Notes: generated by a model from the sequence alone, not told the origin. DNA of 64,000 nt from Candidatus Poribacteria bacterium (GCA_965208675.1 OZ242351.1:3872001-3936000), one strand, 5' to 3'. Shown: positions 35,935 through 49,004, counted from the first letter of the stretch. A program made the numbers and translations.

Positions 35935-36753
35935 ATGTTGACGCAAGCACACCGAATCTTGATACCAGTTTTTCTGTTGTCTACGTTTCTGATGAATATC
36001 GGATGCGGATCTTCAGACGATTCTATTGAGCCAGATACCGAACCCCCCGCTATTCCACGAGGTGTGGAAAGTACTACTGGGAATGGCAAGGTGGAAATTG
36101 AATGGTTCCCCAACGGTGAAATCGATCTCGCCGAGTATAAAGTGTGGCGGAGCCGCGATAATGAGACTTTCAACTTGCTGGATAGGGTTTCAGCAGATGA
36201 ATTTCGATACGTCGATTGGGATGTTCAAAACGGTGTCACCTATTTCTACGCTGTTTCTGCCTTGGATTTCGAAGGCAATGAAAGCGAGTTAAGCCCAGAA
36301 AATATCTCTGATACACCGCGTCCATCGGGTAAAAATGTCACATTAAATGATTTTACACTACATCCAAATCGGAGCGGTTTTGATTTTTCTCAACCTGAGA
36401 ATGGCGCGATTCCGTGGGATTTGCCCATGACGGATGTCTATTTCGGACCGACTGAAGTCTATTCCGAATTTGACGTCTCGTTCACTGTGCCCTATCTCTA
36501 TTCTGATAATTTTACTGAGATGCAAGACATGGGTTACCACGAAAGATCCGACGAAGTTAATGTCTCACCGTTTTTAGGCTTCACAACCGAATTTGTCGAG
36601 TTGATTGAAGGTCACGTTTATGTCTTTTATACGCCCGACGGAAACTACGCTAAGATTCATGTTGTCGCAATTTCAGATAATTCGGTAACTTTTGATTGGG
36701 CATACCAGATTGATCCGGATAACCCGGAACTTGCCCCGCCTTTATATCATTAA
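35935..36753 (+). CDS. lipoprotein with an FN3 domain
   Basis: Lipobox NIGC; PPAIP.G...W...DL..Y.V.R...Y.D..VQNG.TY.YAVSA.D..GNES. Confidence 0.75.
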   Translation: MLTQAHRILIPVFLLSTFLMNIGCGSSDDSIEPDTEPPAIPRGVESTTGNGKVEIEWFPNGEIDLAEYKVWRSRDNETFNLLDRVSADEFRYVDWDVQNGVTYFYAVSALDFEGNESELSPENISDTPRPSGKNVTLNDFTLHPNRSGFDFSQPENGAIPWDLPMTDVYFGPTEVYSEFDVSFTVPYLYSDNFTEMQDMGYHERSDEVNVSPFLGFTTEFVELIEGHVYVFYTPDGNYAKIHVVAISDNSVTFDWAYQIDPDNPELAPPLYH

Positions 36754-36972: not shown

Positions 36973-37737
36973 TTGATGCACCGAGTGAAAAACCTAATTT
37001 CTGTGTGGGTTTTTATGTGTCTGAATCTGTCCCTGATGGCCTTGCCCACCCATTCGTTGATTAATGCCGCAAAACTTGACCACTGTCCATTCACAGTTGG
37101 CGAGATTCTCACCTACAATGTCAAAATTGCGGGATTGACCGCTGGAAAACAGGTGACCCAAGTTACAGATAAAACAGTGTTGAATGGGCGCCAAGTTTAC
37201 CGACTCGTTTCAGAATCTCAGACGGATAGTGTATTTGGAAAACTGTATCACTTTCGGGATCGGCAGGAGAGCTACGTTACAACCGATCAACTACACCCGC
37301 TGCGGCATGTGAAAGACCTTGAGGACCGAAAATACCGAGCACGTGTCGAAATTGATTTTGACATTGAGAGAGGGGTTGCCCAGTATACCAAAAATGAAAA
37401 TGGTAAAGTTTTAGAAGTGCCTATTGGTGTACAGGATGAATTATCAATGGTTTACTTCCTGAGATCAAAGGAGTTAATCGTTGGTCAGACCTACGATATT
37501 CCGGTACTGGTTAAGGATAAAACCCAGGATGTCACAGTCAATGTCTATCGGCGCGAAATGATGAAGACGGAAGCGCTGGGGCGTGTAGAGACGTTAGCGA
37601 TACGTACCTCACACGGCTATTTGATATGGCTCACGAATGACGATCGCCGTATTCCCGTTCGGATCGAAGCAGCAACTCGAATTGGTAAGCTAATTGGTAC
37701 GATTGAAAAGATTGATTCAAGCAAAAACATGAAGTAA
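36973..37737 (+). CDS. DUF3108-family outer-membrane-associated protein
   Basis: PF.VGE.LTY.V, DELSM.Y.LR, IWLTNDDRRIPVRIEA. Confidence 0.75.
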   Translation: MMHRVKNLISVWVFMCLNLSLMALPTHSLINAAKLDHCPFTVGEILTYNVKIAGLTAGKQVTQVTDKTVLNGRQVYRLVSESQTDSVFGKLYHFRDRQESYVTTDQLHPLRHVKDLEDRKYRARVEIDFDIERGVAQYTKNENGKVLEVPIGVQDELSMVYFLRSKELIVGQTYDIPVLVKDKTQDVTVNVYRREMMKTEALGRVETLAIRTSHGYLIWLTNDDRRIPVRIEAATRIGKLIGTIEKIDSSKNMK

Positions 37738-37788: not shown

Positions 37789-40700
37789 ATGAAAGATTTC
37801 TTTCGCCGGACGGATAGCTATCAATCCCTCGTTGAAATTCTATCTAAACTCCAAAAAACTTCCACGCATCGAACTGACCCGCTTACCCAGCCAGAACAAT
37901 ACTCCGTGCTAAATGATGGGATAATTAGCACCAGCAATTCGGACAATTCCGCATCGGACGTTCCATGGTTGTGGGGGTTGCATGGCGCATCGGTCGCCCA
38001 CTTATTGAGTACACTTTCATCAGATTTCTCCGATTCGTCTTTCCTTGTTATTCTCCCCTCACATCATGAGGCTGAAAAGGTTGTGCAGGACCTCCCTACC
38101 TACGGCTTTGACCAGGCATTGTTTTTCCCGGAGTGGCAGAACATTTTCTATGAAGGCGTTTCCCCGACCAAGAAGATTGTTGCGGAGCGAATGACCTGTT
38201 TGCGCCAATTGCTGGAGGGGAATCGCGCGACAATTGTCACATCAATCAAAGCGTTACTGCACCGAATTGCTCCCAAATCGGTTTTATCCGCATTTTTCGA
38301 AACATTGCAAGTTGGTGACGAAATCGCACCCGACGATATTGTCGCATTCCTACTACGCGGCGGCTACCAAAGAGTTGACCTCGTGGAGGCAAAAGGAGAA
38401 TTTGCGCGCCGCGGTGATATTTTGGATGTTTATCCGTTAATTGCCGATAACCCCGTCAGAGTTGATTTTTGGGGCGATAATATTGATGCTATTCGCACGT
38501 TCGACCTCTCCTCACAGCGTTCTATAGCGAATCTGCGGCAGGTGTCCTTAAGTCCTATGCGGGAGGTCTTCTTGACGCCCGATGCGCTTACCCAGTGGAA
38601 AGCACGGGTAGAGGGGTTTATTGAATCAAATCCCTCCCCGGAATATAGAAACGTGATTCATGAGATTACACAACGCTTCGAGGGCGGAACAGATTTGGAC
38701 GGTATTGAATCTCTTCTTCCAATGTTATACGCCAATCCTGGCCTTCTTACCGATTATCTCTCCGCGTCGACAACGGTTTTACTCGTCGAACCAGCATGGG
38801 CGATGAGAGAGGGAAAGCGAACTATTGAGGAAGCGGACGCACTCTACGCCAGAAAACTGGAACAAAATCAATTCATGGTTCCATCAAACGAGACATTCGC
38901 ACCCGTTGAATCGGTAATCCCCGTTTTACAGCGGTATCCCGCGCTTCACATATCCTTGACGCAACCTGAACCTGCAACGGGAGAGCGGATTGCCGAAATT
39001 GACTTTGGTATGCGTCCGCCGGGCGTGCATCGCGGGAACCTTCAGATCGTCATGGACCAGATAAAGGGATGGACGGATGAAGGCTATCTTGTAAACATCT
39101 TCAGTGATAATTCGGCGGGCACCAAACGATTGAATGAGATTCTTGCAGACCGAAGCATGCTCACCGCGCAAACTGCTGTAATAATCGGCAGCATCAGCCA
39201 GGGATATCTCAATAAAGAACATAAGTTTGTTGTTATTTCTGAAGATGAGGTGTTTGGCCGCGAGTATCGCCGGCGCCGCCGCACTGGCTTCAAAGAAGGC
39301 GCACCGATTCTGAATTTGATCGATCTCAAAGAAGGGGACTATGTTGTACATGTATCACATGGAATCGCTGTCTATACAGGGATTCGCCGTCTGGATATTG
39401 ACGGCAAGCCTCAAGATTTTTTGGTTCTGAACTACGCGGGAGGAGACATACTTTACGTTCCCACTCACCAGATTGATTTCGTACAAAAGTATGTCGGAGG
39501 AGATAACGAGGGAAAAGGCCCCCGATTGGACAAACTTGGTGGTACCTCGTGGCAGCGGGTTAAATCCAAGGTGAAAGCGTCCATAGAAGAAATGGCGGAG
39601 GAACTTCTTGAGCTCTACGCAATTCGAGAAGCGCAAAAGGGATTTGTTTTTTCGCCGGACACATCGTGGCAGCGTGAATTTGAAGCGATGTTTCCTTATG
39701 AAGAGACGCCCGATCAACTACAAGCAGTTGATGAAGTCAAAGAGGATATGGAGCGGGTACGCCCCATGGATCGGTTAATCTGCGGAGATGTGGGATACGG
39801 AAAAACAGAAGTTGCGCTTCGATCGGTGTTTAAGGCGGTGATGGATGGCAAACAGGCCGCTGTTCTTGTGCCGACGACAGTTCTCGCACTGCAACATTTT
39901 AACACGTTTAAAAATCGATTCGAACACTTCCCTGTCAGTGTAGAGATGCTGACACGCTTCCGAGCAACTAATGAAGCGAAATTAGTAAAAGCGGGTTTAG
40001 AAAAAGGTGCCGTAGACATTGTCATCGGTACCCATAGTCTGTTGTCGGATAGCCTCAAGTTCCACGATTTAGGTCTGTTAGTAATTGATGAAGAGCATCG
40101 CTTCGGGGTAAAACATAAAGAGAAAATTAAGCAGATTAAGCAAGTGGTTGATGTCATCACCTTGACAGCAACGCCGATTCCGCGTACACTACACATGTCC
40201 CTAATCGGAATCCGCGACTTTAGTGTGATTAACACACCCCCTGAAAACCGTCTGCCAATTGAAACCTACGTGATGGAATATAACCCCGATGTGGCGAAAG
40301 ACGCAATTTTGCGTGAGATGGAGCGGGGTGGTCAGGTCTATTTTGTCCACAATCGTGTGCAGAGTATCGCCAGTATTGCTGCGTCAGTTCAAAGACTCGT
40401 ACCGCAAGCCCGGGTGAGCATCGCACATGGACAGATGGCCGAACGTCAACTAGAAAAAGTCATGATAGACTTTATTAACCACGAATCCGACGTTTTGGTG
40501 TGCACCATGATTATCGAATCAGGGCTAGACATACCTAACGTCAACACAATTCTGATTAACCGTGCGGACGCGCTCGGATTGGCGCAACTTTATCAATTGC
40601 GCGGGCGCGTTGGACGCGCTCAGTATCAGGCATACGGTTACCTTTTCTATCCGCAGGGGCGTGCGATTACTGAAAATGCACAGAAACGGCTTCGAGTTAT

Positions 40701-41322
40701 TGAGGAGTTTACTGATCTTGGGTCAGGGTTCAAAATTGCGCTTAGAGACCTCGAAATCCGTGGAACCGGCAACATCCTTGGTCCCCAACAACACGGCCAT
40801 ATCGCTGTGGTGGGTTATGATATGTATTGTCGGTTGCTTGAAGAAACCGTACGCAAACTTAAGGGCGAAAAGATTGAAGAATCAGTCGAAACGCGAATTA
40901 GCTTGCCAGTGGAAGCATATTTGCCTGACGAGTACGTGCCCGACAGTCGCCAGAAGGTTTCGCTCTATAAGAAAATTGCCGCATTGAAGACGGAAGCGGA
41001 TCGGAAAAGTCTTTCAGAAGAAATCATCGATCGATATGGCAAAATCCCCGAACCTGTCGAGATGTTGCTTGAAATTGCCGAGCTTAAACAGCTTTGTCAA
41101 TCATGCGGCGTTGAAGGGATTGTTGCGGGGGGCGATAATGTAAAGATTTCGTTGGCTGAAGCGAAGTCGAATGTTGACCCTAGTAGGTTTGTTCAGGTAA
41201 TTCAAGGCGATAGACGGCTCTCACTTTCACCGCCTGGCCGCCTGATGGTCAATACAAAAGGGTTGGTTGGAAAATCCCTCTTACTCACTCTCAAGCGAAT
41301 CCTCTTCAGAGCGTTTAGTTGA
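37789..41322 (+). CDS. mfd: transcription-repair coupling factor
   Basis: UvrB-like N-terminus, CarD/RID domain, GDVGYGKTE, DEEHRFG, QLRGRVGR, TRCF domain. Confidence 0.97.
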   Translation: MKDFFRRTDSYQSLVEILSKLQKTSTHRTDPLTQPEQYSVLNDGIISTSNSDNSASDVPWLWGLHGASVAHLLSTLSSDFSDSSFLVILPSHHEAEKVVQDLPTYGFDQALFFPEWQNIFYEGVSPTKKIVAERMTCLRQLLEGNRATIVTSIKALLHRIAPKSVLSAFFETLQVGDEIAPDDIVAFLLRGGYQRVDLVEAKGEFARRGDILDVYPLIADNPVRVDFWGDNIDAIRTFDLSSQRSIANLRQVSLSPMREVFLTPDALTQWKARVEGFIESNPSPEYRNVIHEITQRFEGGTDLDGIESLLPMLYANPGLLTDYLSASTTVLLVEPAWAMREGKRTIEEADALYARKLEQNQFMVPSNETFAPVESVIPVLQRYPALHISLTQPEPATGERIAEIDFGMRPPGVHRGNLQIVMDQIKGWTDEGYLVNIFSDNSAGTKRLNEILADRSMLTAQTAVIIGSISQGYLNKEHKFVVISEDEVFGREYRRRRRTGFKEGAPILNLIDLKEGDYVVHVSHGIAVYTGIRRLDIDGKPQDFLVLNYAGGDILYVPTHQIDFVQKYVGGDNEGKGPRLDKLGGTSWQRVKSKVKASIEEMAEELLELYAIREAQKGFVFSPDTSWQREFEAMFPYEETPDQLQAVDEVKEDMERVRPMDRLICGDVGYGKTEVALRSVFKAVMDGKQAAVLVPTTVLALQHFNTFKNRFEHFPVSVEMLTRFRATNEAKLVKAGLEKGAVDIVIGTHSLLSDSLKFHDLGLLVIDEEHRFGVKHKEKIKQIKQVVDVITLTATPIPRTLHMSLIGIRDFSVINTPPENRLPIETYVMEYNPDVAKDAILREMERGGQVYFVHNRVQSIASIAASVQRLVPQARVSIAHGQMAERQLEKVMIDFINHESDVLVCTMIIESGLDIPNVNTILINRADALGLAQLYQLRGRVGRAQYQAYGYLFYPQGRAITENAQKRLRVIEEFTDLGSGFKIALRDLEIRGTGNILGPQQHGHIAVVGYDMYCRLLEETVRKLKGEKIEESVETRISLPVEAYLPDEYVPDSRQKVSLYKKIAALKTEADRKSLSEEIIDRYGKIPEPVEMLLEIAELKQLCQSCGVEGIVAGGDNVKISLAEAKSNVDPSRFVQVIQGDRRLSLSPPGRLMVNTKGLVGKSLLLTLKRILFRAFS

Positions 41323-41649: not shown

Positions 41650-42651
41650 ATGAAGTATACCTTGAGTGTGTTAGCTGTGACTGTAGCAATATGTTTTACC
41701 GCTTGGCGGGTTGTTCAATCGCAAGATTTGGATTCATCTACAGAATCTGTAGATGAAAGTCAAATAACAGTAGCGGAATACAACTGGGACGGTTCTGCGA
41801 AGCAGATTTCACTCGCCGATCTGAAGGCGGCGATTGATAAGTTGCCGCCCCACCGCCAAGAGAAATACGACGATAGAACTAGTAAGGCGGAGTATTTGAA
41901 CGAATTGATTGCAGAAAAACTGAAACTCCTCGCCGCCATTGAAAGGGAATTTGACAAAGACGAGGAATTCCTAAAAAAGGCAGAGGACTATAAACACCAG
42001 CTTATGGTTGAGCGGCTAACCGAAAATGAAGTCGATAATAAAATCTCCTATACTGAGGAAGACATCAAGCAATACTACGAGACGAATAAAAGCGAATATA
42101 TTGAAGAACCTGAGGTTCAAGCAACTTGTATTGCCTTGCTGGATGAGGACCGCGCGCAGGAAGTATTGGAGGAGATTAAGGGTGGTAAAGACATCGTCGC
42201 AGCGGCGAAGGAGCTCTGGGAAGTTGGTGAATTAGAAGGGCCCGGAGTCAACGAAGAAGAACCCGGACGTACTCGCTTTTTCTCGCGAGATGAGGCCAAT
42301 GAATGGAAAGAGTTAATCGATACCCTCTTTGAAATGGAAATTGGTGAAATGACTCAAGAGGTCTTTGAAACTGACATCCGTGATAAAACTCACTTCATGA
42401 TTTTCAGTAAAAGGGACCACAGGCCTGAACGCCAAAAAGAGTTAGATGAAGTCAGAAATCGCGTTGAACGACAAGTAGAGCGTGGAAAGAAACGCCAACG
42501 AATCACAGAATGGGTTAAAGCGTTTACAACCGAAGGCAAACTCAAGACTTTTCCGGAACGTATTCCCGAGCCTCAACCGGATGAAGAAAGTGAAGAGGAA
42601 ACCTCGCCGGCGCCGGAAGAAGCTGCGGAAGAAAAATCTGAGGATATGTAA
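41650..42651 (+). CDS. exported PrsA/SurA-like parvulin-domain chaperone
   Basis: Signal peptide, SurA-like helical N-domain, QYYETNK..Y..PEVQATCI; paralog of 42741. Confidence 0.8.
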   Translation: MKYTLSVLAVTVAICFTAWRVVQSQDLDSSTESVDESQITVAEYNWDGSAKQISLADLKAAIDKLPPHRQEKYDDRTSKAEYLNELIAEKLKLLAAIEREFDKDEEFLKKAEDYKHQLMVERLTENEVDNKISYTEEDIKQYYETNKSEYIEEPEVQATCIALLDEDRAQEVLEEIKGGKDIVAAAKELWEVGELEGPGVNEEEPGRTRFFSRDEANEWKELIDTLFEMEIGEMTQEVFETDIRDKTHFMIFSKRDHRPERQKELDEVRNRVERQVERGKKRQRITEWVKAFTTEGKLKTFPERIPEPQPDEESEEETSPAPEEAAEEKSEDM

Positions 42652-42740: not shown

Positions 42741-43748
42741 GTGAAGAAACTGGGAAGTATTTGTTGCATTTTGCTTAGCGGGTTTGTACTCAACATCGTG
42801 TTCATCGGCTGCGGCGGAAAAGCAACCGGTGCTGACGGTACAGTGATTGCAGAATTTGAATGGGATGGCAAACATCATATTACCCTTGAAGAGATGATGG
42901 CGGAGATTGACGAACTCCCGGACTACAAAAAACGGCAGTACAAAGAGAAGCAGGAGCTCGAAGAATATATGACCCTCATGGCAGAGAGTCGGTTGATACT
43001 CTGTCTCGCAAAAGATCAAAATCTCGATGAAGATGCGGAGATTCTGGAAAAAGTCCACGATTATCTGCATGAATTGATGGTTGATAAGCTTACCGAACTC
43101 GAAGTTGACCAACAGCTAACAACAACTGAAGAGGACTTTAGGCTTTACTTTGAAGAGAATAAAGACAGATTTGTCGAACCTGAACAGGTACGGGGGATTG
43201 CCATAGCAGTTGCAAACAAAGCCCGCGCCGAGGAAGTGCTTCAGCAGATAAAAGACGGCAAAGATATCGTTGAAGTTTCTAAAGAACTAATAGACAGGGG
43301 CGAAATGGAAGGCCCAGGTTCAAACCCGGCGGACCCCGGCGCAACGGGATTCTTTTCGCGCCACTCTTATCCCGAAGAGGCGCAGCCTTTTGTTAAGGTG
43401 GCGTTCGATCTGGAGGTCGGCCAAACAAGCGATGAGATTATTGTTATCGAATTTGGGCGGCCGTATTACATGATTTTCCGCAAAGATGAACATAAACAAG
43501 AACGCCAACAAGAACTTGAGGAAGAATATGTGCGCCGCAACGTGGAAAGAGCTGTCGAACGCGACAAACGTAAACAACTGATGCAAGCATGGATAGAGCG
43601 GCTCCGCGAACGTGCGAAGGTTAAGACGTACATCGATCGAATTCCGGAGGCACCAAAGGAAGACGATGCCGACACGGAAACTGAAGCTGCTGAGGATGAT
43701 TCTTCTTCCGCCCACGATTCCATGGAAAGTAAGTCTGAGGAACAGTAA
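42741..43748 (+). CDS. lipoprotein PrsA/SurA-like parvulin-domain chaperone
   Basis: Lipobox FIGC; YFEENKDRFVEPEQVRGIAI...AFDLEVGQTS...LRERAKV. Confidence 0.8.
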   Translation: MKKLGSICCILLSGFVLNIVFIGCGGKATGADGTVIAEFEWDGKHHITLEEMMAEIDELPDYKKRQYKEKQELEEYMTLMAESRLILCLAKDQNLDEDAEILEKVHDYLHELMVDKLTELEVDQQLTTTEEDFRLYFEENKDRFVEPEQVRGIAIAVANKARAEEVLQQIKDGKDIVEVSKELIDRGEMEGPGSNPADPGATGFFSRHSYPEEAQPFVKVAFDLEVGQTSDEIIVIEFGRPYYMIFRKDEHKQERQQELEEEYVRRNVERAVERDKRKQLMQAWIERLRERAKVKTYIDRIPEAPKEDDADTETEAAEDDSSSAHDSMESKSEEQ

Positions 43749-43843
43749 TGTGAGTCGGGTATTTGGCTTTAGGTGAGATCGAAACCTTTAGCGCCTATGC
43801 CCAACTCAAATTGCCAATTAGATTTTACGGAGGTACATCCTAT

Positions 43844-45160
43844 ATGCGCACTGCGAACTTGATTCGCCAAGCTCTCCTTATATTGTTTTATGTGGCAGTC
43901 GGGAACAACTCTCTGTTTGCGCGGACATTTGATGAAATTATCGCTTATGTCAACGACTCCGTAATAACCAAATGGGAACTCGAAAACGTCGTGAAACAAC
44001 GCGCAATGGAACTACAGACCGCACATCAATTCAGTCCACGCGAAGCTATGGAAAGAGCGGAACAAGAACGCCAAGAGCTGCTTGACCGTCTGATTCGCCA
44101 AATGCTCCTCGTAGAAACTGCATTGAGCTTGAAAATTGAGGTGACGGATGAGGAAGTGGAACAATACATCCAAAACTTTAAGAAAAATGCAAAAATTGAA
44201 ACAGAAGAGGAGTTCATAGAACAGCTGAAAAGAGAGGGATATACCCTGAGTGCCTTTCGAGAGCAAGCGAAGCGGAACCTAATGGCGGAGCGGCTTTTAA
44301 TGCAGCGTGTACTGCCAAAACTCCAGGTCAGAGATGCGGATGTCATGAAGTTTTTTGAAGAAAACCGGCAGCAATTTACAACGAAAACTGACGAGGTGCA
44401 TTTGAAACACATCTTCATCGCTTTCAAGGCTAGCGACGCCAAGCGGCAAGCCGCGCTTAAAGAGATGGACTCCATTCTTAACGAAATTGAAATGGGCAAG
44501 TCATTTGCCGAACTTGCCCGACGCTATACGGAGGATGAACAGGGTCAGGAGCGAGCTTCATCGAAAGTTGGCGAATTGATTCAGTGGCCGATAGCAGAGA
44601 TTTCGAATCTCTCCCAGCCATTCCGAATTGCACTTTCTTCACTAAACGCCGGCGATCTTAGCGATCCTATTGAAGGGAATGATGGAATTTATCTCTTCAA
44701 TATTGAAAGTAAGACTAACCAAACGATTTCGTTCCGTTATCTTGTAATCCATCTAAAACCAGGTGAAGAAGCTATTGAAAAAGCAAATGAACGCGCCAAT
44801 CTTGTTCTACAAGAATTACGTCAGGGCGCGGATTTCAAGACGCTCGTTAATCAATATACGGACGATTTGGAAACGAAATCAGATGGCGGCAATCTTGGTG
44901 TGCGTTCACTCAACGATTTGAATCCCAATACGCGGAAGGTCATTGAGGCACTTGCAGTTGGAGAATATAGCGCACCGCTCAAAACCGCCCATGGACTACA
45001 CATCTTCACGGTTGATTCTCGAACTGCTGTCGAACTTACTGAAGCGGAAAAAGAACAAATCCGTCTCGTGTTGCGTGAGCAAAAATTTCAAGAGGGTTGG
45101 CAGGCTTACACGGATACAATTTTGAAGGGTGCATACGTAAAAATCAATCCGATTAAATGA
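43844..45160 (+). CDS. surA: SurA-like chaperone with two parvulin domains
   Basis: DEIIAYVNDSVIT, LLDRLIRQML, VHLKHIFI, SDGGNLG, PLKTAHGLHIF; GGAGG RBS. Confidence 0.8.
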   Translation: MRTANLIRQALLILFYVAVGNNSLFARTFDEIIAYVNDSVITKWELENVVKQRAMELQTAHQFSPREAMERAEQERQELLDRLIRQMLLVETALSLKIEVTDEEVEQYIQNFKKNAKIETEEEFIEQLKREGYTLSAFREQAKRNLMAERLLMQRVLPKLQVRDADVMKFFEENRQQFTTKTDEVHLKHIFIAFKASDAKRQAALKEMDSILNEIEMGKSFAELARRYTEDEQGQERASSKVGELIQWPIAEISNLSQPFRIALSSLNAGDLSDPIEGNDGIYLFNIESKTNQTISFRYLVIHLKPGEEAIEKANERANLVLQELRQGADFKTLVNQYTDDLETKSDGGNLGVRSLNDLNPNTRKVIEALAVGEYSAPLKTAHGLHIFTVDSRTAVELTEAEKEQIRLVLREQKFQEGWQAYTDTILKGAYVKINPIK

Positions 45161-45176
45161 AGAGAGAAGACACAGA

Positions 45177-48100
45177 ATGGAAGGGAGGGAAAGAAAGAGA
45201 CCCAAAACTGGAAGACTAAATAGCCAAGACGCAAATTGGATTTCACTTCCTAAATCTCCCGCTTTGCTGTATTCTCATTACGTTTTGTGCGTTACTGGCT
45301 ATGCATTACGTTTTACATCTCACGCATTATCAATTACTTTTCTCGCCTGTTTCTCGCTTGCATCTGTTTGTTCCTTGGCCGCCCAAGATAATCTCCCACC
45401 TGCCGCTGGCGGCGTTGATACCGCAACGGATGCAAAGAATCAATCCGAACCTTCTCCCGATATCCAAGAAACTTCCCTAGAAAAAGAGAAAAAGCGCAAG
45501 TCCCAACTGGATCCTGATAATACTACCCCTGAAGAAGGTAAAGTCATTGGTGATGGCGATGAGATTTTCGTCCAGGAGAATATTGTCCAGATTCACGGAA
45601 ATGGGCTAATCAAATTTGAGGACGTCGTGCTTCACGCAGACCATATTTGGGCGGATTTTGACGAAAATATTATGCGTGCGGCTGGCAACGTGCGTCTCAT
45701 TGTTGAAAATGAGGAAACGCATGCGAACGAATTAGTTTACAACCTTGACAACAAAAAAGGAGTTGTGCGGGAAGGATTTACATACAGCGATCCCTGGTAT
45801 TACCGTGGTACAGAAATCTTCAAGGTCGAAGCGGATGAATCCTACATCCGCGGCGGTTCACTCACGACCTGTTCCCTCAAACACCCTCATTTCTACTTTA
45901 GCGCCTCTAAAATCATCGTCAAAATTAACAAAGAATTAATAGCGAAAAACATTGTGCTGAAGGTGGGCGGCATCCCGCTCTTTTATTTCCCGGTCTACCG
46001 CCGTGATTTGCGCGAGGATAAAGTCGCTAAGGTGATTGTAAAACTTGGAACTGATAGCTATCAGGGGCCGTTTGTCAGCATCATTTTGCCCCTCGCGCGC
46101 CGGCAGCGGTATGATGGCGCGCTGCTGTTCGATCAGAGTGCACGCCGAGGCGGCGGTAGGGGATTCGAGGGAAAATATCGTGTCAATGACGTCAAATTTC
46201 AAGAGATTCTTGTCCCCATTCCCGATGATGCAACACCAACTGAACGCGCGAATCTTGAAGAAAAAGCCGAAGAGTTATCAGATCGATTGGAAGGCAAATA
46301 TGACAATTTTAAGATGCGCCAGATATTCTTGGAATACAAGATTAGCGACGACGACGTCGCACGGGCACATGAGGAAGCAAACGAAATCTACACACAACTC
46401 CAGGCGGAAGACGGCGATTTTGCCGAGATAGCTCAAAGCAGTTCTGACCATCAAGATACCCGTTATCAAGGCGGAAACATGGGTTTTCTGGTGCACGGAG
46501 AGCGGGACGAGGACGGCGAACTTAGGCTCAATCCAATTTTGGAAAACGCTGCTTTCCAGCTGCAACCCGGGGACATTAGCCCGATTTTGCAGACCGAAAC
46601 AGGGTTTCACATTTTAAAAGTAGAACGTGTCATTGAGGTGTACGGTGAACGGGAGATTCAGGTGCGTCGAATTGACATTGTGGTCGAACCAAGTGACGAA
46701 ACTCGAGAATCTATTCAAGCGACTGCGGATGAAATTCAGGAACGTGCAAGTGCTGGCGAGACGTTCGATCAGTTAGCTTCGGAATACGAAGAAGCAGAAG
46801 CAGCCAGAGTTAATCAAGGCGCGTGGATGCCATTAATTGAAATGGACAATCGTTGGCGGTATTCGGTGCGTCGGATGGAACACCCTGGTGAAATCACACC
46901 GCCAGTAAAAACCAACCTCGGGGTTTATATCTTCCAATTAATTGAAAAGCAGCCGACGCCTAGTTTTGAAGAGATTGCTAGCCAATTTGAAGCAGAATGG
47001 GCTGCTCTGCAAGCGGAAAAAGAGGTAATAGAAACCCGGGAAGACCCAGAGGAACAAGATGGGGCAGAACCAGAGGAGAACGGCGAACCTCAATCGGATA
47101 GCACACATGACGCAATACAGTATACGGAATCTGATAACACAGTAGATTCGACGGAAGCAGAAAACTTGGAAGAGGAAAACGGAGAAGAGGAAGCAAAAGT
47201 CTACGAGAAGTACGGCTTTCGTGGCAAGTGGGAAATGCCGCGGAATGTCGCTTCACAAACCCAACGGCTATATCGGGGCGAATCGAGCCGCGTTATCAAA
47301 ACAAAAAAAGGGTACCGCCTCGTCAAAGTTGATAGGAAACGCACTTTCAGGGGCGATTTGCTATTTCTCGCCGAAGACCAATATTCGTCTAATCGCAAAA
47401 AACCCTTCAGAACCGGACAAAAGTGGACCATGCGGTGGGGGCATAACCATGTCATTTATACCCCTTGGGATAGCCGAGCCAAAGGGCGGCGGCCTGTGAG
47501 TTGGGTGAGTCGCGTGCTATGGGGCGCGCGAACTTACAAAGAAGGATTAGGAGAGAACGAATCGACCATTGACTCCTTTTCTGTGGTGACATGGGGTTCC
47601 GCTTTGTCTGCTGTAGATAATAAAGATTATGACGAGGACGGCAATTTGACATTTTCACGGGAGACCATCGGGGAGTTCTTGGGGCGTTTACAGGTGAATC
47701 ACACCTTAGATCTCACAGGAGAAGGGACAACAACCCTGCAAAAACTGCCTGCATTCACAGTCTCACTGTCGCGAATGCGCTTCAATCGGTTGCCGTTGTT
47801 CAAATCGCTCAATTCTGGTCTAACCTGGATTGCTGATAAATTGCGCACTGACCGTCCAATCCTTTCAATGGTCTCTTTTCCTACGCTTGAAAACACCAGC
47901 TTTGATTTCGACACCGCCTTGGGCAACTTCTACCGGGAACGATATAGGGATGAGGAAGATGTGTTCTTGCAGACGATGGATCTCGGCTTTGATTTGCGGA
48001 AACAATCGACATCACAAATTATGCCTAACCGTGAGTTATTGCTCGATGTAACGCTGCAAAGCAACATGATTTGGCACTCCAAAGACCGAGCTGGCAACCA

Positions 48101-49004
48101 AAATATCTTGCGTGGTGTTTACAGCACACGAGCCACCGCGAGCAATACGCTCTTTCGAATCTATGACATCGGCTTTATTCCTGGCGTACGCCGCATGCGG
48201 CATCAAATTGATTCGAGTCTCAAATTAAATTATCAACCGCCTGTTGAAAGGGAGGAAGATGACCTTTACCCGTTTGGCCCCAGTACTCACTTCTTTGAAA
48301 GAAAGAGTCTTGCCTATGTTTTCCGTACGAGCATTGAAGTGAAGACGCGCCGCAGCAAATCTGCGCTCCGACTTCTGGACTTCACAACTCGACTAAGAGC
48401 AGACTTTTCCGAACGCGCCAAGGAGAGAAATCGAGAATTCGACCTGATTGAAAGCGATTTAAGGATTACTCCGCTGGCGAGCCGTAAGATGACAATTACA
48501 ATGCGCACAACCCACAATCCTAATGAATCAGAGATTGGCGGGGAACGATTCAAAATGGTCGGTTTTCGAACAAATCTCAGATACCGGCGAACAACGTGGC
48601 ATTTTTCATTGGGGAGTTCGTTCAATAAGAGGACAACACGTGCCAGACGGGATTACACGGCGAGTTGGAGTTACCGGCCAAATAGGCTCGTGGAGTTTGA
48701 CTTCAACCTAATTTATGATTGGATTGAACAACAGTTCTATTCGCAAAGTATCGCGGTTCGGCGGAATCTCCATGACTGGAATCTGACCATACGGTGGAAT
48801 CGCCGCGGCATCAGGCGCGGTACAGATTCTGACAATGTCCGTCAAGATTTCATCTTTCAGATTAACCTAATCGAAGAATCTGCGGCTTCGGTTGGACTTG
48901 GGTATGATGCGACAACGGACACGTGGGGCTTCCGAAGTCTGCCCGCAGGCGTGCCCTATAATGCCTTTAGCGCTGGAACGACGCTTGGACGTTCTTATTT
49001 TTAA
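45177..49004 (+). CDS. lptD: LPS-assembly protein LptD with inserted parvulin (PPIase) domains
   Basis: OstA-like beta-taco (LHADHI..D...AAGNVRL), TTCSLKHPHF, LKVGGIPLFYFP; parvulin motifs at ~46190-47340; barrel C-terminus ...RRNLHDWNL... Confidence 0.8.
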   Translation: MEGRERKRPKTGRLNSQDANWISLPKSPALLYSHYVLCVTGYALRFTSHALSITFLACFSLASVCSLAAQDNLPPAAGGVDTATDAKNQSEPSPDIQETSLEKEKKRKSQLDPDNTTPEEGKVIGDGDEIFVQENIVQIHGNGLIKFEDVVLHADHIWADFDENIMRAAGNVRLIVENEETHANELVYNLDNKKGVVREGFTYSDPWYYRGTEIFKVEADESYIRGGSLTTCSLKHPHFYFSASKIIVKINKELIAKNIVLKVGGIPLFYFPVYRRDLREDKVAKVIVKLGTDSYQGPFVSIILPLARRQRYDGALLFDQSARRGGGRGFEGKYRVNDVKFQEILVPIPDDATPTERANLEEKAEELSDRLEGKYDNFKMRQIFLEYKISDDDVARAHEEANEIYTQLQAEDGDFAEIAQSSSDHQDTRYQGGNMGFLVHGERDEDGELRLNPILENAAFQLQPGDISPILQTETGFHILKVERVIEVYGEREIQVRRIDIVVEPSDETRESIQATADEIQERASAGETFDQLASEYEEAEAARVNQGAWMPLIEMDNRWRYSVRRMEHPGEITPPVKTNLGVYIFQLIEKQPTPSFEEIASQFEAEWAALQAEKEVIETREDPEEQDGAEPEENGEPQSDSTHDAIQYTESDNTVDSTEAENLEEENGEEEAKVYEKYGFRGKWEMPRNVASQTQRLYRGESSRVIKTKKGYRLVKVDRKRTFRGDLLFLAEDQYSSNRKKPFRTGQKWTMRWGHNHVIYTPWDSRAKGRRPVSWVSRVLWGARTYKEGLGENESTIDSFSVVTWGSALSAVDNKDYDEDGNLTFSRETIGEFLGRLQVNHTLDLTGEGTTTLQKLPAFTVSLSRMRFNRLPLFKSLNSGLTWIADKLRTDRPILSMVSFPTLENTSFDFDTALGNFYRERYRDEEDVFLQTMDLGFDLRKQSTSQIMPNRELLLDVTLQSNMIWHSKDRAGNQNILRGVYSTRATASNTLFRIYDIGFIPGVRRMRHQIDSSLKLNYQPPVEREEDDLYPFGPSTHFFERKSLAYVFRTSIEVKTRRSKSALRLLDFTTRLRADFSERAKERNREFDLIESDLRITPLASRKMTITMRTTHNPNESEIGGERFKMVGFRTNLRYRRTTWHFSLGSSFNKRTTRARRDYTASWSYRPNRLVEFDFNLIYDWIEQQFYSQSIAVRRNLHDWNLTIRWNRRGIRRGTDSDNVRQDFIFQINLIEESAASVGLGYDATTDTWGFRSLPAGVPYNAFSAGTTLGRSYF

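Follow-up and report, generated by a model that had tools for sequence, protein, structure and literature searches.

LptD is an essential, slow-folding protein and a drug target, and it provides a textbook example of dependence on SurA. In the available part of PMC3747590, LptD is described as the most SurA-dependent substrate in Escherichia coli, and the chaperone activity of E. coli SurA is assigned to its core, while of its parvulins just P2 is enzymatically active. The accessible part of bioRxiv 10.1101/2025.04.10.648201 reports for the Enterobacterales that LptY binds and stabilises the periplasmic jellyroll of LptD near the inter-domain disulfides. Here we describe an LptD of different build, encoded on a 64,000-nucleotide (nt) stretch of a Candidatus Poribacteria bacterium (GCA_965208675.1 OZ242351.1:3872001-3936000), which we call the window and from whose first letter all nt positions are counted; the lptD gene with its parts and the upstream genes from mfd to surA lie on the plus strand. 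The gene at 45177..49004 (1275 amino acids (aa) plus stop codon, according to the list of open reading frames (ORFs) and the translation) represents a phylum-wide, unannotated LptD variant with a nested triple-parvulin module in the turn between barrel strands beta4 and beta5 (T2). We are highly confident of this architecture and of the periplasmic side of the module, and much more cautious about its role.

Homology, fold and genomic setting identify the gene as the sole LptD of this genome. In a profile-profile comparison with hhalign, 29 insert-bearing relatives matched 10 canonical LptD proteins with a probability of 100 % (E 1.3e-44, 652 columns) over residues ~115-1240, thus including both flanks and leaving the insert as one large gap, and the match persisted with E. 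coli LptD added to the profile (E 1.6e-42). When the C-terminal 555 residues were searched with phmmer against 1.84 billion representatives, 30 proteins were found at E <= 1e-3, and 10 of these were scanned with Pfam: five were long and had Rotamase domains alone, and the other five (669-1051 aa) were without Rotamase and above the LptD_2 and LptD cut-offs, three of them also matching LptD_N. Among the matches passing the LptD cut-offs, one is named LptD by its source, and another is a cluster from candidate division TA06. The fold of an AlphaFold2 model (residues 101-1275, built from 107 aligned sequences, mean predicted local distance difference test score (pLDDT) 78.7, predicted template modelling score (pTM) 0.62) is a 12-strand jellyroll followed by 4 + 22 = 26 barrel strands. 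Foldseek searches with this model gave full-length LptD structures as all of the top 15 matches (E 1.2e-20 to 6.7e-15), and VIA-align matched it to full-length LptD chains at Z 17.3-20.5 with 585-641 residues aligned; the C-terminal part, with its 22 strands, is thus modelled with the LptD fold. The jellyroll itself (model 19-131) matched LptA 2r1a_H at Z 13.0 with a root-mean-square deviation (rmsd) of 1.9 A over 112 aligned residues.

Family-level sequence searches tell less. Pfam scans of the whole protein and of both flanks gave no LptD or OstA match at a useful E-value, with Rotamase alone seen, and when the PDB was searched with a profile of the family, only parvulins, SurA and PrsA came up, and no LptD, so that the LptD identity rests on profile-profile, transitive and fold evidence. 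It counts against this identity that the curated cut-offs were missed when Pfam PF04453, PF19838 and PF03968 were tested, LptD_2 reaching 10.7 bits vs 22.5; these missed cut-offs also explain why database names lack LptD. Two NCBIfam LptD equivalogs match residues 126-340 weakly (E 3.9e-5 and 1.5e-4; 20-22 bits vs cut-offs of 683-944), and a deep-branching relative, G003, is above the LptD_2 cut-off at 35.9 bits. A search of the 4.89-Mb single-contig genome (96.4 % complete) with PF04453 and PF19838 found no locus better than 45177-49004, and the same genome encodes LptE (39.3 bits), LpxC (289.5 bits), LptF and LptG (283.7 and 252.7 bits) and Skp. Outside the window, at C1:57826-58413, it also has one 305-aa frame with two OstA/LptD_N repeats, which is likely LptA. 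The predicted role of the protein, judged by homology, is to place lipopolysaccharide (LPS) in the outer leaflet together with LptE.

The insert measures 381 aa (residues 339-719), beginning after KYRVND (residue 338, nt 46190) and giving way to barrel sequence at FRGDLLF (residue ~724, nt 47340), which agrees with an earlier note on this DNA that had placed about 380 extra residues at ~46190-47340. That note had described three nested parvulins within the barrel region of an LptD, the first one opened, two others contained in it and the first then completed, and hhalign, fold, Pfam, alignments and a local parvulin hidden Markov model (HMM) all agree with this description. The module is one parvulin (Pv1), split after beta1-alpha1 by two complete parvulins (Pv2 and Pv3) and later by an acidic disordered loop. 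Its parts are the Pv1 N piece with beta1 and helix 1 (residues 339-376, 46191..46304; SurA P1 alignment, model strand plus helix 254-272), Pv2 (residues 377-490, 46305..46646), Pv3 (residues 491-593, 46647..46955; Pfam Rotamase_3, E 4.4e-11), the long middle helix of Pv1 (residues 594-621, 46956..47039; model helix 497-521), the acidic loop (residues 622-672, 47040..47192; pLDDT 24-34) and the Pv1 C piece with beta2, helix 4 and beta3-beta4 (residues 673-719, 47193..47333; Pfam, local HMM and alignments, model strand 612-636). Pfam Rotamase reached 121.3 bits (cut-off 21.7) in three stretches between residues ~374 and ~720, namely complete domains at 375-490 (E 8e-19) and 491-593 (E 4e-11) and a partial one at ~662-719 that corresponds to profile positions 37-96; scored singly, the pieces reached bit scores of 68.9 (Pv2), 40-44 (Pv3) and 21.8 (Pv1 C piece).

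The two ends of Pv1 were compared separately with known parvulins. For the N piece (338-376), a gap-free alignment with E. coli SurA P1 covered P1 positions 3-41 (z 6.2), and the C piece matched both SurA P1 (686-722 vs positions 68-104, z 3.5) and positions 83-110 of its own Pv2 (z 7.7); the alignment of the middle helix to parvulin positions 42-56 was weak and not significant. With the local HMM, two full domains and the C piece (HMM 37-104) were found in 12/12 family representatives from across the phylum, and the N piece (HMM 2-36) in 11/12, each N piece being weak alone (independent E-value (i-E) 1.7e-5 to 3). In the window protein, the N piece matched HMM positions 2-35 (weakly) and the C piece positions 59-103 (i-E 8e-5). 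The order of secondary-structure elements in the AlphaFold model agrees with the nested layout, this layout is repeated in >100 relatives, far beyond chance, and where relatives have no acidic loop, Pv3 is directly followed by the C piece. Pv2 superimposes on SurA P1 (1m5y_B) with Z 13.2 and rmsd 1.8 A over 96 aligned residues (VIA-align), and the family profile matches SurA residues 130-368 (1m5y), two consecutive parvulins, at E 3.6e-13. Scanned alone with Pfam at E <= 10, the insert matched Rotamase families and no SurA_N. Its best paralogue within its own genome is the adjacent SurA (E 2e-4), and as this is just 28 % identical, the insert did not arise by recent copying within this genome. 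As for the acidic loop (47040-47192), both length and sequence are very variable: it is missing in P0122, G011 and G013, and much longer in other lineages, where whole proteins reach 1370-1450 aa.

To either side of the insert, the protein follows the plan of E. coli LptD. The N-terminal beta-jellyroll ('beta-taco') comprises 12 strands at residues ~121-280 (45537..46016; AlphaFold strands at model 23-177, VIA, hhalign), strands beta1-beta4 lie at residues 287-338 (46035..46190; model strands 187-193, 197-208, 212-221 and 225-247), and the 22 model strands beta5-beta26 at residues 720-1231 (47334..48869). In E. coli, P231 lies in beta1 and P246 in beta2 (accessible parts of PMC6164715 and bioRxiv 10.1101/2025.04.10.648201), C724/C725 lie in the beta24-beta25 periplasmic turn (the same part of bioRxiv 10.1101/2025.04.10.648201), extracellular loops 3, 4 and 5 are Tyr291-Trp311, Lys333-Thr356 and Phe377-Ser389 (bioRxiv 10.1101/2025.07.07.663478), and D330 follows strand 7, where loop 4 starts (PMC6887485). 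We indexed the E. coli K-12 lptD sequence accordingly, with P231 in SGFLIP, P246 in FYLPYYW and C724/C725 in SSCCY, and with Y291 and W311 flanking a long acidic loop. Besides the insert, the flanks are colinear with E. coli LptD, with no indel of >2 residues. Before the insert, E. coli 200-214 pairs with residues 258-272 (z 4.6), which puts P272 on P214; P305, on P246, lies 33 residues past this anchor (32 in E. coli), and the insert starts 33 residues after P305, compared with 34 residues from P246 to the SQAGAG turn in E. coli. On the other side, residues 727-764 align without gaps to E. coli 288-325, with W750 on W311 at the end of extracellular loop 3, the equivalent of which is residues 737-744. 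The VIA anchors on either side, which pair model 183 with residue 225 of Shigella (9rpt_A) and model 625 with residue 285 of E. coli (9p1u_F), enclose 442 residues in the window protein vs 60 in E. coli, and towards the C-terminus an HDW turn falls at the position of the E. coli CC turn, for a total of 26 strands. Because E. coli homology mapping, structure-alignment anchors and the strand count of the model lead to the same place, the insert is predicted to replace the periplasmic beta4-beta5 turn, T2; the earlier note had likewise put the site in a periplasmic turn, and the modelled barrel of 4 + 22 strands carries its parvulins there.

In the model, barrel strand 4 (325-347) continues as beta1 of Pv1, and the last strand of Pv1 continues as barrel strand 5 (712-736), at a pLDDT of 82-94, while the links joining the three parvulin domains are only 2-5 residues long. 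As strands 4 and 5 run unbroken into the central strands of Pv1 and the links are short, the module would be a compact body fixed on the periplasmic rim at a distance of four strands from the lateral gate, a position that would place it beside the jellyroll. A complex prediction for the jellyroll (115-300) and the module (339-725) gave a score of 0.00 and no verdict.

A conserved histidine pair marks active parvulins. We fixed the histidine columns by alignment with E. coli SurA P1 and P2, which both have the two histidines, and counted residues over 100 insert-bearing sequences. In Pv1 the two positions hold E343 (95/100) and R714 (95/100), in Pv3 R498 (97/100) and Y584 (86/100), and in Pv2 the first is Q382 (84/100) and the second is kept as H478 (93/100). 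As Pv1 and Pv3 are without the histidine pair, two of the three domains are not expected to be isomerases, although all three are predicted to be parvulin folds; and as five of the six catalytic-histidine positions hold other, themselves conserved, residues, the module is probably not primarily an enzyme.

The inter-domain disulfide of LptD is also affected. Of 100 family members, 96 retain the jellyroll cysteine C232 (45870-45872), which corresponds to E. coli C173. Position 1200 (D1200, 48774-48776), the equivalent of C725, is a cysteine in 4/100 family members vs 7/7 canonical LptD, and D or N in 91/100. With the barrel cysteine replaced the inter-domain disulfide is gone, and a lone conserved jellyroll cysteine is left. 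The four family members that keep the barrel cysteine are probably deep branches, and they carry the module as well; it follows that the module came before the loss of the cysteine, and that it did not simply replace the disulfide, a point which counts against the explanation preferred below.

Taking the observations together, the best overall explanation is an LptD with a T2 parvulin module that acts in cis and is not primarily enzymatic, which we rate as somewhat on the probable side; for the cis-acting, non-enzymatic role taken by itself we see the chances as even. The parvulin module would serve as a binding platform acting in cis on the translocon: it would fold first in the periplasm, would hold or orient the unfolded barrel segments on either side of it while the barrel assembly machinery (BAM) assembles this very large barrel, and thereafter would remain as a fixed support next to the jellyroll, whose disulfide tie is lost in most members. 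Within such a role, an assembly aid and a permanent buttress are roughly equally likely. Several points weigh against this explanation. Binding, chaperone action and an effect in cis are inferred from sequence and model; the SurA core, the seat of the chaperone activity, was not found in the Pfam scan of the insert; and according to the available part of PMC3747590 the SurA parvulins are largely dispensable in E. coli. Moreover, Pv2 keeps most parvulin motifs, with S423 in 100/100, G433 in 99/100 and G436 in 100/100 (the GG-MG motif) besides H478, and may thus have some prolyl-isomerase activity. The tethered chaperone module proposed in the earlier note therefore fares unevenly: the likeness of its parvulins to the SurA satellites stands, while the chaperone role is not borne out by a module without SurA core, with most of its histidines replaced, in a genome that encodes free SurA and Skp. 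The tethered-chaperone idea thus stays plausible.

The same observations bear on the strongest of the alternatives, in which the module would be a trans-acting foldase or chaperone at the outer membrane, i.e. a SurA- or PpiD-like station, permanently in place and anchored there, that takes in other outer-membrane proteins or LptE close to the translocon, possibly with an isomerase-active Pv2. The retained S423, G433/G436 and H478 of Pv2 would suit such a station, as would the match of the inner domains to SurA P1-P2 in both sequence and fold and the place of the gene within a row of four parvulin genes, surA among them, that is conserved. We nevertheless consider it unlikely, since the first Pv2 histidine is mostly Q and Pv1 and Pv3 lack both histidines, since there is no SurA core domain in the module and free SurA and Skp are encoded elsewhere, and since with links this short the modelled mount looks rigid and not like a flexible tether.

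Conservation and range bear on the next alternative, in which an old domain insertion in a permissive turn has persisted as tolerated baggage, without a specific role. In a word-indexed search, 8000 candidates were scored and 369 relatives found among them, of which 120 were listed. These 120 are 53-97 % identical to the window protein, 119 of them are 1143-1370 aa long, and all have a precomputed Rotamase match, one also LptD_2; the few that have names are called hypothetical protein, peptidylprolyl isomerase or parvulin-like isomerase of Candidatus Poribacteria. The barrel part was found in 174/176 genomes of the phylum (133/133 high-quality genomes, 30/31 genera), the two genomes without a match being fragmented assemblies, and the open frames, mostly 1230-1450 aa, are nearly all long enough for the insert; in four deep-branching genomes that were checked, the frames (1221-1319 aa) have 2-4 Rotamase stretches each and the insert is present. 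A scan of one genome per species gave 155 loci, 80 of which were kept and used for synteny counts (76 with Poribacteria in their titles, four with 'uncultured bacterium'), and no insert-free copy was seen in these 80. Searching the insert against the 80 loci with tblastn gave matches in 36/80 with a low identity of the best high-scoring segment pair (HSP), which is an artefact of split HSPs, and alignment-based identities were used instead. In the ESM Atlas, two clusters belong to the insert-bearing family, both automatically named 'PpiC domain-containing protein', and the next matches are LptD clusters of many other phyla (score 0.82), none with Rotamase.

Within the family, the C-terminal tail has the highest median identity to the window protein (0.78), followed by strands 1-4 (0.74) and the jellyroll (0.72), then by the barrel (0.59) and the parvulin parts (0.55-0.66), and the acidic loop has the lowest (0.18). 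An insertion without function would account well for an acidic loop that drifts so freely and for a number of parvulins that varies between lineages, but not for folded domains that are as conserved as the barrel, for a barrel part in nearly every genome of the phylum with frames that are nearly all long, for conservation of 84-97 % in the residues that replace the histidines, or for 80 loci in which none lacks the insert, and we regard it as quite improbable.

A third alternative would put the parvulin module in an extracellular loop, displayed on the cell surface. Several points weigh against the periplasmic placement: taken pairwise, the flanks align only weakly to E. coli (z 4.6 and 2.6), and the profile alignment is locally ambiguous across strands 1-5, where another register is available at the cost of a 28-residue gap; with E. 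coli in the profile, hhalign smears strands 1-5 across the insert, and the local columns there were set aside. In addition, membrane side and rigidity derive from homology, strand counting and DSSP, and not from seen geometry. However, the number of strands ahead of the insert is also even in the alternative hhalign register. P231 falls in the strand equivalent to model 187-193, so that four strands precede the insert; the loop that follows the next strand is extracellular loop 3, ending at W311 (W750); and the model closes at 26 strands solely on the count of four before the insert. Surface display is thus highly improbable. An insert after strand 3, in an extracellular loop, had been considered as a candidate position, and was overturned by the actual E. 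coli sequence together with the published strand and loop numbers.

The junctions were also examined in sequencing data. Twenty runs from ten studies contain half or more of the words sampled from 45900-47700, and in all four runs examined, from four studies, this region is covered without joint, indel or loose end, with contigs that bridge both insert junctions, one of which (40,238 nt) spans the whole stretch; base composition shows no break across ORF 45177-49004. That the fusion is an artefact of assembly or gene calling, or the barrel a large barrel other than LptD, as the lack of an LptD match above the Pfam cut-off for the window protein might suggest, can be dismissed as next to impossible in view of these bridging contigs, of the same open frame in single-contig genomes, and of the strong profile and fold matches to LptD, with G003 passing LptD_2.

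Returning to a parvulin module that acts in cis on its own translocon, a more far-reaching form of it can be imagined, though we think it doubtful. The parvulin body would be both an intramolecular chaperone and a lock, which nucleates in the periplasm, guides the N-terminal strands and the jellyroll at BAM and then holds the jellyroll, and which arose once at the root of the Poribacteria, with a fourth parvulin added at T5 in some lineages. If this were true, a disulfide lock that depends on Dsb and the accessory lipoproteins of enterobacteria would be unnecessary, and quality control of LptD would be a matter of protein only.

With regard to the rest of the protein, a signal peptide is predicted at residues ~47-69 (45315..45383), a hydrophobic stretch ending in AAQ that was read by eye from the sequence and for which the family consensus retains L..L.LP...L.AQ. 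The called ATG puts ~46 residues before this apparent signal peptide (45177-45314), and matches of relatives often start at residues 20-50; translation may in fact begin downstream of this ATG. In the periplasmic beta10-beta11 turn (T5), the window protein has a 17-residue helix (residues 873-889, 47793..47843; model helix 773-789), and at this position some deep-branching LptD proteins carry a fourth parvulin (~792-922 in L014 (G001), and also in G003, P0129 and P0163), whose pieces are in permuted order, HMM 21-105 followed by 3-38. Beyond beta26 follows a C-terminal tail (residues 1232-1275, 48870..49001), ending in SYF, which is conserved and has low model confidence; these ~40 residues are the best-conserved region of the protein, and the tail of canonical relatives is shorter and unrelated.

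The genes upstream are equally rich in parvulins. surA (43763..45160, 465 aa, SurA_N plus two parvulins; Pfam, NCBIfam) ends 16 nt before lptD and matches SurA_N, SurA_N_2 and SurA_N_3 in Pfam. It was found upstream of lptD on the same strand in 78/80 loci, the other two beginning at contig ends. The earlier note had given surA and lptD as neighbours in E. coli, which is what we see in E. coli K-12, and they are neighbours at this locus as well. Two tandem paralogous single-parvulin genes (Rotamase_2; 41650-42651 and 42741-43748) lie between mfd (37789-41322) and surA. Each of them is present in 75/80 loci and mfd in 73/80, while downstream genes are common to just 3/80. Thus, four parvulin-bearing genes stand in a row (two single-parvulin genes, surA and lptD with its insert), kept in 75-78 of 80 loci. 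Upstream of mfd are a 272-aa ORF without Pfam match and a DUF3108 protein (35935-36753 and 36973-37737).

Throughout a whole phylum, parvulins have thus become part of LptD at one defined turn on the periplasmic side, with selection on them matching that on the barrel in strength, and the Poribacteria LptD can be seen as a natural experiment that links parvulin domains to assembly or stability of the translocon. It also indicates that a large beta-barrel tolerates a folded insertion of 380 residues that continues strands of the barrel wall, which may be useful for barrel engineering. In hundreds of Poribacteria genomes the gene is labelled 'peptidylprolyl isomerase', 'PpiC domain-containing protein' or 'hypothetical protein', and because of such labels automated surveys would score the phylum as being without LptD. 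Full-text literature searches, with subscription journals and supplements outside their scope, found no paper on an LptD-parvulin fusion.

Compared with known systems, the best structural matches outside LptD are the Bacteroides peptidyl-prolyl isomerases 8HM3 and 8HM4 (8hm3_B with Z 16.4 and 241 aligned residues; 8hm4_B with Z 15.6 and rmsd 4.9). Like the module, these proteins and the PrsA/PpiD-type foldases have parvulins inside larger proteins, but those are soluble or lipid-anchored chaperones with helical chaperone domains, and none sits in a beta-barrel. SurA (1M5Y) shares the tandem parvulins, and the Pv1 N piece aligns best with its P1, whereas the module is without the N/C core, has its parvulins nested instead of in series and is membrane-anchored via the barrel. 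The likeness to LptY/YedD and LptM would at most be one of functional analogy, in that the modelled module too would hang from the periplasmic rim beside the jellyroll; LptY/YedD (a lipocalin) and LptM (a small lipopeptide) have folds unrelated to parvulins and are encoded by separate genes in Enterobacterales only.

The nearest barrel relatives outside the family are insert-free LptD proteins of other uncultured phyla (e.g. candidate division TA06; P0147, P0148 and P0139; E 1e-9 to 9e-4). P0147, P0148 and P0139, at 669-792 aa, have no rotamase domain, a short beta4-beta5 turn and both cysteines, and pass the LptD_2/LptD cut-offs. With proteobacterial LptD (4Q35, 9KN3, 5IV9, 8H1R, 7OMM) the Poribacteria protein has in common the jellyroll and 26-strand barrel with colinear strands, the FYxP motif, the beta2 proline and, past extracellular loop 3, the RW...H motif as anchors, and a single-copy gene accompanied by LptE, LptF/G, LptA(-like) and LpxC, with surA as neighbour. 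It differs from them in sequence, with an identity of ~12 % in structural alignments, in the barrel cysteine that is missing in 96/100 family members, in an added conserved tail of 40 residues, and above all at the beta4-beta5 turn, where six residues in E. coli LptD correspond to 381 residues of nested parvulins in the Poribacteria protein.

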